NCBI GenBank assembly: GCA_951406725.2
Contig: OX597822.1
Span: forward strand, 100,936,001-101,000,000
Reading direction: 5' to 3'
Source of the DNA: Octopus vulgaris
Taxonomy: Eukaryota
DNA: 64,000 nucleotides
The notes below the pieces were generated by a model. It was not told the origin of the DNA and did not search any database. It saw only the letters and a program-made list of their open reading frames with translations. The number at the start of each line of letters is the position of its first letter. Within the stretch, counting starts at the first letter, position 1. Below, in pieces: positions 22,277 through 59,693 of the stretch. The position numbers were made by a program, and so were the translations under genes.

Positions 22277-22439
22277 GGTGGATCTCCGTCGTTCGAAAAT
22301 GAATATTCAGTTATTCGACCTACTGAATAACCTATTCTTCGACTAACGTGTAAGTTTATATATATATATATATCTACCTACCTTCTCTATAATGTTGCCA
22401 CTTGATATGAAAATTTTTGTATTAATGGGAAACCTCTAT

Positions 22440-22530
22440 AATTGGCTGATGAGTGCTCAGCATATTAAAACTGTTGTAATACTTACAACATTTAATAAGA
22501 TGATGTAGTACGAAACGATCGTACCAAATT
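22440..22530 (+). ncRNA. Type I hammerhead ribozyme with extended stem II
   Basis: TTGG-CTGATGA-GTGCT...[TATTAAA/TGTTGTAA-TAC-TTACAACA/TTTAATA hairpin]...AGTAC-GAAAC-GATC-GTA-CCAA. Predicted cleavage is after 22523. Confidence 0.85.
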
Positions 22531-22883
22531 ACCGGAGTCATTCTTGTTGCTTATTTTGATTATAATCACCCCACGGATTTTTGTGGATAACACCATACAG
22601 AATTCTGGTGCATCTAAATTAACTACCATATTCATTTGAATCTAAATTTTTGCTGAACTCCCTCGGCTATTAAATGCTATTTTTGGCCTGCTATCGCCTG
22701 TTTCATTGATATTTTGTTATTATCATTTTTAAAATAGTTACATTGGATAATAATAGAATTAATGACACCTTCGCAAATTAATTTTTCGTAAATTATTTTT
22801 CTCGTAAAATGTATCGAGATTATTTTACACTGGTGGCTGATGTGATTTCAAAACGATGCGCTGGGAATCTCTAATCATGGTAA

Positions 22884-22937
22884 CGCGTGCTGAAGAAGCT
22901 AAGGCTTATTTTGCCAGTGCAGAAACCGGTCCACGTG
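22884..22937 (+). ncRNA. Type I hammerhead ribozyme
   Basis: CGCGTG-CTGAAGA-AGC...GC-A-GAAAC-CG-GTC-CACGTG. It has a 6-bp stem I, a palindromic stem III ACCGGT and cleavage after GTC at 22931. Confidence 0.8.
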
Positions 22938-23240
22938 AGTCCAGATATTTAAATGCATGTTACTAGAGTGTCTTAACCTGATTTTGCCTTCGTTTGATTT
23001 CTGTAGTTATTATCAGTGTATTTTTTGCGATTTAATAAGAGTTATGACTGTTATTTCAAGCAGGTAGACATACTTACTATGTCCTTTGATTAATTTTAAT
23101 CCCTCGGCTATTAAATGCTATTTTTGGCCTGCTATCGCCTGTTTCATTGATATTCTGTTATTATCATTTTTAAATAGTTACATTGGATAATAATAGAATT
23201 AATGATACTTTCGCAAATTAATTCTTCGTATATATATATC

Positions 23241-23943: not shown

Positions 23944-24006
23944 TAGATAGATAGATAGATAAATGAAAGAATGGAGTCGAACGACGATTTAACAAAATTC
24001 CTTTAT

Positions 24007-24087
24007 TCTCGACATATGTTTCGAAGACTGCATATTCTTAATTCCGGAGGAATAAAGGGTGCATTATGCCGTCTTCTCATCAGGAAA
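24007..24087 (-). ncRNA. Type I hammerhead ribozyme
   Basis: Minus strand reads TTTC-CTGATGA-GAAGAC...GTCTTC-GAAAC-ATAT-GTC-GAGA, with a perfect 6-bp stem II base. Confidence 0.85.
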
Positions 24088-24829
24088 GACAAGGAACTTA
24101 TGTCAGCATCATGACGAACAAAAGCTTTTAGATGACTATATATATATATGTATGTATCTATAGGTTATTTGAAATAGTGTACAGATTTTATATATTAAGA
24201 AAAAGGAGGTAGTCCGGACTTGGATGAGAGCAGTTTATTTAGCACTGTCGTCCCTTTTATGAAAACTCTCAAATTTAGCCCGAACACTCTGTATGCGGAC
24301 ACATAGTCACACATAAAGCATAAAACCATAAAATACTGAACCAAAATATGCAATAAAATAACATAAACAATATTGCAAAATATGCAATAAAATAAAATAA
24401 ACAATGAGCATAAACACATTAAGTCTATAAGCGTTAACAACTTACGGTGACAAATATGTTAGAAAATGAAACAGAGATGATATATTAACGAAAAAGGTCG
24501 AGCAAAGTGCGCGTAAATATAAGAAAATGCTAGGATAGTTAAGACGCATCAGAATCCTACTTGAATCCTAAATGTAAAAAATAAGCTAATAGGTATCAAC
24601 ATTCTAGATATTCCAGTACTATGAAAGAAAAGTCTAGAGAAGAATATTTTAGACACATAAGGTTAATAACCAAAACTAAGTTAACTCTTTAGCATTAAAA
24701 CCGGTCATATCCGGCCAAAATATTCTTCTTGTTTTATGCACGAAGTGGCCACATCTAGATTTTTCACACCAAGTCCTACATCATTTTTAAAATCAACAGT
24801 CACCTTATGAAACTTGCAAAGATACAGGA

Positions 24830-56677: not shown

Positions 56678-56793
<116 letters not shown>

Positions 56794-56822
56794 TACATAT
56801 ATATATATACATATATATATAC

Positions 56823-56890
<68 letters not shown>

Positions 56891-57047
56891 AAATAAATAT
56901 AAGAGAGTGGTCACTATATTGATCACTCTAGCACCAGTTAATCCAAAAGGTTTCAACCACGAAAAATACATGTTTCCCATGAAAGCCGGTACGACTGTTA
57001 GCTCACACGGACAGGGCAAATAAAAAATAACAAAAATACAGATTATT

Positions 57048-57123
57048 TTGGGACAATTGTTTCGCTATTAATGAATTAAATGTAATATTACTTACAGTAA
57101 TCCATTTGTAGCTCTTCAGCCAA
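57048..57123 (-). ncRNA. Type I hammerhead ribozyme (array copy L1, GUC site)
   Basis: Minus strand reads TTGG-CTGAAGA-GCTA...TAGC-GAAAC-AATT-GTC-CCAA. Confidence 0.88.
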
Positions 57124-57581
57124 GACTATCTGGATGAAATCCACTCAATCACACGCCAGATTTTACCATAACGATAAATACGCGTGCGGTTCAATTGATT
57201 ACATCGGACGTTATAATTCAAATGCCCCAACCAACAGCGCGCCAAACTCTCACGGAAAACAAATACAGCATTTAGAAATAAATGCAGCATAATTATAATT
57301 AATTAATAAGGGTGAGAGAATTAGATACTAATTTAATAGTATATTTATTCCACACCAAGTGGCCTAGTGCTACGAGAAACCTGGATTATTATAATATTTT
57401 ATAACATATTATAATATTTTCACAAAATAAATATAAGAGAGTGGTCACTATATTGATCACTCTAGCACCAGTTAATCCAAAAGGTTTCAACCACGAAAAA
57501 TACATGTTTCCCATGAAAGCCGGTACGACTGTTAGCTCACACGGACAGGGCAAATAAAAAATAACAAAAATACAGATTATT

Positions 57582-57657
57582 TTGAATCAATTGTTTCGCT
57601 ATTAATGAATTAAATGTAATATTACTTACAGTAATCCATTTGTAGCTCTTCAGCCAA
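57582..57657 (-). ncRNA. Hammerhead copy L2 with altered cleavage triplet (GAT), predicted inactive
   Basis: Reads GAAAC-AATT-GAT-TCAA instead of GTC-CCAA. Confidence 0.75.
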
Positions 57658-58115
57658 GACTATCTGGATGAAATCCACTCAATCACACGCCAGATTTTAC
57701 CATAACGATAAATACGCGTGCGGTTCAATTGATTACATCGGACGTTATAATTCAAATGCCCCAACCAACAGCGCGCCAAACTCTCACGGAAAACAAATAC
57801 AGCATTTAGAAATAAATGCAGCATAATTATAATTAATTAATAAGGGTGAGAGAATTAGATACTAATTTAATAGTATATTTATTCCACACCAAGTGGCCTA
57901 GTGCTACGAGAAACCTGGATTATTATAATATTTTATAACATATTATAATATTTTCACAAAATAAATATAAGAGAGTGGTCACTATATTGATCACTCTAGC
58001 ACCAGTTAATCCAAAAGGTTTCAACCACGAAAAATACATGTTTCCCATGAAAGCCGGTACGACTGTTAGCTCACACGGACAGGGCAAATAAAAAATAACA
58101 AAAATACAGATTATT

Positions 58116-58191
58116 TTGGGACAATTGTTTCGCTATTAATGAATTAAATGTAATATTACTTACAGTAATCCATTTGTAGCTCTTCAGCCAA
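58116..58191 (-). ncRNA. Type I hammerhead ribozyme (array copy L3, GUC site)
   Basis: Same as L1. Confidence 0.88.
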
Positions 58192-58729
58192 GACTATCTG
58201 GATGAAATCCACTCAATCACACGCCAGATTTTACCATAACGATAAATACGCGTGCGGTTCAATTGATTCAAAATAATCTGTATTTTTGTTATTTTTTATT
58301 TGCCCTGTCCGTGTGAGCTAACAGTCGTACCGGCTTTCATGGGAAACATGTATTTTTCGTGGTTGAAACCTTTTGGATTAACTGGTGCTAGAGTGATCAA
58401 TATAGTGACCACTCTCTTATATTTATTTTGTGAAAATATTATAATATGTTATAAAATATTATAATAATCCAGGTTTCTCGTAGCACTAGGCCACTTGGTG
58501 TGGAATAAATATACTATTAAATTAGTATCTAATTCTCTCACCCTTATTAATTAATTATAATTATGCTGCATTTATTTCTAAATGCTGTATTTGTTTTCCG
58601 TGAGAGTTTGGCGCGCTGTTGGTTGGGGCATTTGAATTATAACGTCCGATGTAATCAATTGAACCGCACGCGTATTTATCGTTATGGTAAAATCTGGCGT
58701 GTGATTGAGTGGATTTCATCCAGATAGTC

Positions 58730-58805
58730 TTGGCTGAAGAGCTACAAATGGATTACTGTAAGTAATATTACATTTAATTCATTAATAGCGAAACAATTGA
58801 TTCAA
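58730..58805 (+). ncRNA. Hammerhead copy R1 with altered cleavage triplet (GAT)
   Basis: Mirror image of L2. Confidence 0.75.
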
Positions 58806-59263
58806 AATAATCTGTATTTTTGTTATTTTTTATTTGCCCTGTCCGTGTGAGCTAACAGTCGTACCGGCTTTCATGGGAAACATGTATTTTTCGTGGTTGA
58901 AACCTTTTGGATTAACTGGTGCTAGAGTGATCAATATAGTGACCACTCTCTTATATTTATTTTGTGAAAATATTATAATATGTTATAAAATATTATAATA
59001 ATCCAGGTTTCTCGTAGCACTAGGCCACTTGGTGTGGAATAAATATACTATTAAATTAGTATCTAATTCTCTCACCCTTATTAATTAATTATAATTATGC
59101 TGCATTTATTTCTAAATGCTGTATTTGTTTTCCGTGAGAGTTTGGCGCGCTGTTGGTTGGGGCATTTGAATTATAACGTCCGATGTAATCAATTGAACCG
59201 CACGCGTATTTATCGTTATGGTAAAATCTGGCGTGTGATTGAGTGGATTTCATCCAGATAGTC

Positions 59264-59339
59264 TTGGCTGAAGAGCTACAAATGGATTACTGTAAGTAAT
59301 ATTACATTTAATTCATTAATAGCGAAACAATTGTCCCAA
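59264..59339 (+). ncRNA. Type I hammerhead ribozyme (array copy R2, GUC site)
   Basis: TTGG-CTGAAGA-GCTA...TAGC-GAAAC-AATT-GTC-CCAA. Predicted cleavage is after 59335. Confidence 0.88.
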
Positions 59340-59626
59340 AATAATCTGTATTTTTGTTATTTTTTATTTGCCCTGTCCGTGTGAGCTAACAGTCGTACCG
59401 GCTTTCATGGGAAACATGTATTTTTCGTGGTTGAAACCTTTGGATTAACTGGTGCTAGAGTGATCAATATAGTGACCACTCTCTTATATTTATTTTGTGA
59501 AAATATTATAATATGTTATAAAATATTATAATAATCCAGGTTTCTCGTAGCACTAGGCCACTTGGTGTGGAATAAATATACTATTAAATTAGTATCTAAT
59601 TCTCTCACCCTTATTAATTAATTATA

Positions 59627-59693
<67 letters not shown>

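Follow-up and report, generated by a model that had tools for sequence, protein, structure and literature searches.

We consider it likely that the insert at positions 56890-59626 of the window (the whole 64,000-nt stretch of Octopus vulgaris DNA analyzed here) belongs to a young family of hammerhead elements of the animal non-LTR retrozyme kind, with a non-coding unit of 534 nt, and that it was put into a (TA)n tract by the enzyme of a Penelope-like element (PLE). This enzyme would have primed cDNA synthesis on each of the cut strands, at two different fixed positions of a single RNA. By sequence criteria, the family is best read as a new animal non-LTR retrozyme family, and within this known class the element is nothing out of the ordinary. 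PLE mobilization of retrozymes has so far been argued from co-occurrence and pseudo-LTR likeness. In the present family, a small template that encodes no protein has given hundreds of young insertions, which follow a strict one-short, one-long rule.

The insert consists of two arms joined head-to-head. In the numbering of the unit, position 1 is the base that follows the predicted cut. The left arm (56890-58268, 1,379 nt, 2.58 units) has its ribozyme sense on the minus strand. Its 5' end lies at unit position 386 (58268), two full units follow, and its 3' end is at unit position 162 (56890), the "short" end. The right arm (58260-59626, plus strand, 1,367 nt, 2.56 units) has a single 1-nt deletion near 59441 and a 3' end at unit position 292 (59626), the "long" end, 131 nt past the short end. 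The arms meet at a CAATTG palindrome (58260-58268), where they overlap by 6 nt if the intact unit sequence is assumed, and by 9 nt if the variant described below is assumed. The (TA)n target tracts lie at 56682-56885 on the left and at 59623-59693 on the right. The original prediction of a non-coding 534-bp unit, repeated about 2.5 times per strand in near-identical copies between (TA)n tracts, was thus confirmed. It had recognized the tandem arrays on both strands, but missed that they form head-to-head arms ending at two different fixed unit positions.

Copies of the unit within the insert are 99.6-99.9% identical, with a GC content of 33%. The longest stop-free stretch in the circularized unit is 69 aa. 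The unit is non-coding, below 50% GC and without an evident LTR-type layout, as in animal non-LTR retrozymes. An autonomous PLE would have its own reverse transcriptase (RT) and GIY-YIG reading frame, and the unit has neither. A tblastn search of the window with the proteins of the Neptune-type and Hydra-type PLEs described below gave no match.

Five type I hammerhead cores (CUGAAGA...GCGAAAC) were found in the insert, and the GUC cleavage site is kept in three of them. Two intact ribozymes are on the minus strand, at 57039-57131, an extent taken from the fold (predicted cut between 57052 and 57051), and at 58107-58199 (predicted cut between 58120 and 58119). The third, at 59256-59348 on the plus strand, was delimited by fold, Rfam match and alignment. 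Its predicted cut, after C59335, is the one proposed originally. The remaining two hammerheads, at 57573-57665 (minus strand) and 58722-58814 (plus strand), have a GAU variant at 57585-57587 and 58800-58802, respectively, and are predicted to be inactive. The expectation that each unit reads AATT-GTC-CCAA at this place therefore needs amending: the core is present in all five, but two read AATTG-ATT-CAA.

The hammerhead at 59256-59348 has a stem I of UUGG/CCAA with a distal helix, the CUGAAGA core, a long stem II and the GAAA. Stem III, C-AAUU-G, has two pairs and a palindromic loop before the GUC; it was placed by the hammerhead consensus and is absent from the minimum-energy fold. The Rfam check that had been suggested was successful in part. 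Hammerhead_1 matched 59262-59341 with 26.7 bits (E 6.4e-5 for the 141 nt scanned) and a long insertion in loop II, but this did not reach the gathering score of 34, and a scan of 8 kb missed the hammerhead. The fold of the unit had a z of -6.9 when linear. As a circle, it had a predicted energy of -150.7 kcal/mol (z -7.5, 30 shuffles), with 68% of the bases paired and stems I and II formed, as in retrozymes. The antisense strand had a similar fold z, of -7.4. We aligned the ribozymes of 20 units picked from 50 distinct ones, ten from the 534-nt group and ten from a sister subfamily with a unit of ~496 nt. In this alignment, 99% of the 420 cells were paired, compared with 26-41% in slid controls. 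Four of the ten stem I pairs were changed on both sides across subfamilies, a compensatory covariation in which, with two to three subfamilies, the number of independent events is small. Across subfamilies that are 70-77% alike, the ribozyme was maintained with compensatory changes.

The variant AATTG-ATT-CAA has exactly two matches in the genome (2.8 Gb), both in this insert, compared with 2,381 for the intact 27-mer. It is letter-for-letter the sequence of the inversion junction (58260-58271), and both GAU cores lie one register step from that junction. Because it equals the junction and is unique in the genome, it was likely copied from there, by gene conversion or by assembly polishing. 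The variant was not evident in four sequencing runs, made from samples other than the assembled individual. That the two GAU variants alone are an artefact seems to us close to evenly balanced. As an explanation of the locus, that this array, or at least its two GAU variants, arose by wrong assembly or polishing of an inverted repeat is very unlikely. It would fit a variant identical to the junction, found nowhere else and sitting one step off it, and gene conversion from the junction fits these equally well. The two-armed architecture was found at 41 loci with differing junctions, so the array type is real; the unit is also present in public runs, and the concern that the array is an assembly artefact was not substantiated. 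By the NUH rule, GAU sites would not cut. Intact ribozymes number one in the right arm and two, 1,068 nt apart, in the left. If the variant is real, this copy would be a poor source of monomers, from which at most a 1,068-nt dimer could be released.

The family is dispersed over the genome (227 contigs). The 16-nt ribozyme motif has 2,645 exact copies, the intact 27-nt ribozyme half 2,381 and the exact long-end/(TA) junction 800, with 0 in each of the reversed controls. The family counts at least 800 insertions, and its short dispersed tandem arrays are found on many contigs, so that the refuting condition of no other genomic copies did not hold. The youngest arrays on different contigs are 0-2 substitutions per unit apart. 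These sequence criteria also support the original classification as a young, non-autonomous hammerhead element of the non-LTR retrozyme kind. For detailed study, we used 39 loci from the best matches. To these we added 37 of the 38 loci listed for the first 75 Mb of contig C1, the remaining one being already in the set.

Whole or partial matches to the unit were also detected in 20 public runs from nine studies and six organisms, and one contig of organism C covers the full 211-nt stretch compared. These data are contigs, from which neither ends nor circles can be read. The unit is covered in runs that we guess to be RNA, and a unit-length back-joint occurs also in a large, presumably DNA run. 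In run X8 (organism B, guessed RNA), the contigs differed from window positions 59000-59533 at 11 A>G places vs one T>C place on the ribozyme-sense strand. The A>G places were in low-depth contigs and clustered in few of them, a pattern that resembles A-to-I editing of a structured transcript.

The 3' ends of the arms run into (TA)n, and they fall at unit positions ~155-164 or ~284-293. The arms thus end at ~161 or ~292, away from the cleavage site; any target-site duplication is hidden by the insertion inside (TA)n. About half of the insertions have a single visible arm. In the C1 sample (37 loci, first 75 Mb), such single ends were long in 12 cases and short in 11, with three loci uncalled. 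Two-armed arrays combined one short and one long end in 38 of 41 cases; the other three had one end unclassifiable, and no array had two ends alike. Under even odds for each end, the probability of 38 mixed pairs out of 38 is ~4e-12. A stricter end caller found mixed ends in 13/13, 12/12, 7/7 and 9/9 arrays, the 7/7 being the sister subfamily and one locus being also in the C1 set. In that subfamily, the two ends are ~100 nt apart, all seven called two-armed arrays were mixed, and five of the 30 loci were uncalled. An inverted, 5'-truncated copy with a tail at one end only is what an element mobilized by PLEs would be expected to have.

Head-to-head inversions of PLEs have been proposed to originate by self-priming (PMC3846280), and their tail by endonuclease resolution (PMC8557442). 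Following these proposals, the inversion here would come from self-priming or fold-back of one cDNA (or from an antisense template), and the short end from endonuclease resolution. The arm lengths make this improbable. The longer arm carried the short end in 19 arrays and the long end in 19, and fold-back copying of the first cDNA could not produce the two outcomes. Either arm may be up to ~100 times longer than the other, with extremes from 67 vs 6,699 nt to 6,810 vs 341 nt. Furthermore, 30 of the 41 junctions link unrelated unit positions. Near-symmetric junctions were more frequent than expected (11/41 vs 4.7, p 0.005), two of them at the same hairpin (157/157), and the locus studied here joins at a palindrome; fold-back may cover that minority. 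The overlap between the arms at the junction was 0-9 nt in 30 of the 41 arrays and longer in five, and inserted letters were found in six. Together, the one-of-each rule and the freedom of either arm to be the longer one favor twin internal priming over fold-back. We infer that such priming was performed by a PLE enzyme, in line with a PLE protein that cleaves and extends both strands, is predicted to be a dimer and has two internal RNA start sites matching the genomic tail (PMC11167929).

The 5' ends of the arms are spread evenly over the unit, with 6 of 112 near the cleavage site, where 4.2 were expected (p 0.24). Since there is no pile-up at this site, the template was not a cut linear monomer. 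An apparent pile-up (13/117) was caused by missed short BLAST pieces, and it was gone when the query was doubled.

Across 52 loci, we found nine array-wide private variants, six of which were seen in both arms. Further array-wide variants were present at L210, L211, L215 and L216. Assembly consensus can make the units of an array look more alike than they are. Other variants were partial and non-periodic, at L071 (4/13 units), L059 (2/5), L043 (2/4), L211 (2/6) and also at the locus studied here. They are not explained by a single monomer circle, unless conversion or assembly error came later. A periodic variant, which would mark a multimer circle, was sought and not found; the L071 variant is in units 1, 3, 6 and 11. 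Unpolarized counts of fixed variants had no A-to-G bias (array-wide, nine A>G and 11 T>C; singletons, five and seven). An excess of G>A among single-unit variants (14 vs 4) was not repeated on a larger set (13 vs 9).

Li et al. 2026 (bioRxiv 10.64898/2026.07.22.740005) sketched a scenario of minisatellite expansion. Here, it would mean that a PLE-type end was inserted once per locus, expanded locally by slippage or unequal crossover and was homogenized afterwards. The variants common to two adjacent units at L043 and L211 do resemble local duplication or conversion. However, an insertion that consists of one end, begun at 161 or 292, would lack a complete unit for such expansion unless a tandem template had been copied. 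Arrays on different chromosomes, with as many as 13 units, are 0-2 substitutions apart, and in inverted pairs each arm is a multimer of one common haplotype. We therefore regard this origin as very unlikely.

For the template of twin priming, two forms have to be weighed. Tentatively, and with a confidence somewhat short of even, we read each two-armed array as the product of one event: a dimer of the PLE RT/endonuclease would act on a single 534-nt RNA circle, prime both nicked (TA)n strands at fixed sites 131 nt apart and roll independently on each side, and the two cDNAs would be joined head-to-head. If true, the PLE tail, the head-to-head inversion and the retrozyme tandems would come from one mechanism, in which the two subunits would each hold a separate start site. 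The long uniform arms favor a circle over an uncut multimer. Alternatively, the same twin priming may have used a linear, uncut read-through multimer, or the RT may have jumped between monomers, in which case the hammerhead would be slow or dispensable and no circle would be needed. We hold this to be possible, yet rather doubtful. It is favored by the partial, non-periodic variants, and by the preference for uncut RNA in vitro, where such RNA was the dominant substrate and ribozyme mutants were still inserted (PMC11167929). The minimal stem III and the tandem arrangement of autonomous 3.6-kb Hydra-type elements are also in its favor, and a linear multimer would equally account for the internal starts, for haplotypes common to both arms and for the lack of accumulated 5' ends at the cut site. 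Against it stand the arms that reach ~13 units and carry private variants throughout the array. A linear source would have to be no shorter and no less uniform than each daughter, while 5' truncation shortens the arrays, and the compensatory changes by which the ribozyme was retained across the diverged subfamilies would have to be accounted for.

With the circle as template, the proposed life cycle would be as follows. The dispersed tandem arrays are seen in (TA)n, where their 3' ends fall at either ~161 or ~292 while their 5' ends vary. Their transcripts are predicted to fold as hammerheads and to be cut after the GUC. Cutting would probably be most efficient as a dimer, because stem III has two base pairs and a palindromic loop. 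Cleavage was found in only one of nine predicted Xenopus retrozymes (Li et al. 2026). The monomers might then be ligated to circles and a circle might serve as the template, a step for which we see the chances as about equal either way. A PLE RT/endonuclease, probably dimeric, would nick both strands of (TA)n, and start one cDNA from 161 and the other from 292. Each cDNA would run for 0.1 to 13 units, and the pair would be joined head-to-head, mostly with 0-9 nt of overlap. The family lends itself to a simple assay with a 534-nt RNA and a (TA)n target, for which two start sites are predicted.

A first look at the genome gave 30,634 and 9,481 PLE candidates, and two young, intact families were compared with the unit. 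The Neptune-type family has intact 753-aa frames of 99-100% identity, with RVT_1 and a weak GIY-YIG. Its clade was assigned by the CxxxxCxxC linker, as described in PMC8557442. It has a minimal hammerhead with a UUGA core and two fixed ends, ~48 nt apart, in (TA)n, with one end of each kind at L098, L099 and L117. Copies at L054:2-2360 and L088-L117 belong to this very young family. The Hydra-type family has 899-aa frames with a DKT motif and no Pfam match, and by eye it resembles Hydra-1_Obim. It carries a hammerhead with a long stem II and has two ends ~155 nt apart, with one of each in all seven inverted pairs for which both ends were called. Between RT and endonuclease, the 899-aa frame has a long serine- and asparagine-rich insert, and many near-identical copies are present genome-wide. 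At L148 and L149 (G000:C1:119516477-119524555), three intact-looking copies are in tandem.

The unit thus has its (TA)n target and the two-end, one-of-each pattern in common with PLEs of both types. The length of its stem II and of its tail is reminiscent of the Hydra type, and the pyrimidine-rich CTTA motif before each unit end resembles the Neptune type. BLAST had been suggested for finding further copies and a PLE partner; it returned many loci, but no partner match in the two families examined. With blastn, the unit had no match in 30 Neptune-type loci and none in the elements of 50 Hydra-type loci, where the few hits were neighboring retrozyme copies. Pseudo-LTR sequence common with an autonomous partner was therefore not found in these two families. 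The available part of the PMC8557442 supplement contained neither of two short motifs taken from the unit. At L053, L118 and L119, an end of the sister subfamily is fused to a Hydra RT frame, with the look of a template switch. We rejected this fusion as evidence for a partner, because both flanks match a paralogous region in which the two elements lie apart, and the fusion is a ~7-kb deletion in a duplicated segment. L118 and L119 are segmental duplicates of L159 and L196 on C1, two of which carry the ~7-kb deletion.

Other hammerhead elements were found in the window and at other loci. At window positions 22360-23230 (plus strand), a type I hammerhead (~22442-22528) with a long stem II and a GUA site belongs to a unit of ~441 nt with terminal redundancy, which finishes in (TA)n. 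Copies of it, 70-78% alike, are at L052 and L085, and it is probably a second retrozyme family. A hammerhead-bearing end at 23960-24130 (minus strand), between microsatellites, is 71-79% like the non-coding ends of Hydra-type loci. At L054:4280-4600 (plus strand), a hammerhead with a long stem II, a CCGAAGA core and a C-AGCT-G stem III is at the end of an AT-rich stretch that finishes in (TA)n and adjoins the retrozyme there. The minus strand of L060 has a pair of hammerheads 439 nt apart, with the CAATTG stem III of the unit and other stems I and II.

The retrozyme class, and the idea of PLE and rolling-circle replication, are already in print (PMC7229834; bioRxiv 10.64898/2026.07.22.740005). 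Our search of the literature on cephalopod and octopus retrozymes, hammerheads and Penelope twin priming, with Repbase, Dfam and paper supplements outside its scope, found neither the present family nor the one-of-each rule described. As in animal non-LTR retrozymes, the tandem units are non-coding and low in GC, with one type I hammerhead each, a two-pair stem III and a highly self-paired predicted circle that permits stems I and II, and PLEs co-exist in the genome. Published units are 220-245 nt in corals, 350-390 nt in Mytilus and 330/350 nt in axolotl (PMC7229834; bioRxiv 10.64898/2026.07.22.740005). Unlike the retrozymes of PMC7229834 (150-450 bp), the present unit has 534 nt, inside the 51-972 bp of the 2026 preprint. 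Its stem II is long (~53 nt), unlike that of published retrozymes. Neither two-armed inverted arrays nor two fixed ends are described for retrozymes in the available parts of these two sources. Pseudo-LTR homology to PLEs was reported for 21 of 57 Xenopus retrozyme families, and none was found here in the two PLE families compared.

How PLEs come to form tandem and inverted insertions is listed among the unanswered questions in PMC8557442. The inverted, 5'-truncated head-to-head copy, the one-end tail and the tandems of our family are like those of the Hydra and Neptune clades (PMC8557442, PMC3846280). As in endonuclease-bearing PLEs, the hammerhead is upstream of the 3' ends, and Hydra elements also insert in (TA)n. 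The tail of the unit, 131 nt (~100 nt in the sister subfamily), is longer than the 30-40 bp described for endonuclease-bearing PLEs. Unlike Hydra and Neptune elements, the unit has no RT or GIY-YIG frame, and it has no sequence in common with the two tested families. With Poseidon PAc of Anolis (PMC11167929), it would have in common the two internal starts downstream of the hammerhead, the predicted dimer and the AT-rich target, both strands of which would be cut and extended. However, PAc is autonomous with adjacent start sites, whereas the unit is protein-less with sites 131 nt apart. No difference in the start site of PAc was seen between strands in vitro, while the arms of the unit use different sites in all 38 called arrays. 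Non-autonomous PLEs of Chlamys resemble their autonomous partner at the 3' end, and their clade is described without canonical hammerheads, both unlike our unit. Like Chlamys MRC1 (PMC8557442), the unit would be a non-autonomous rider on PLEs, with multicopy head-to-tail insertions.
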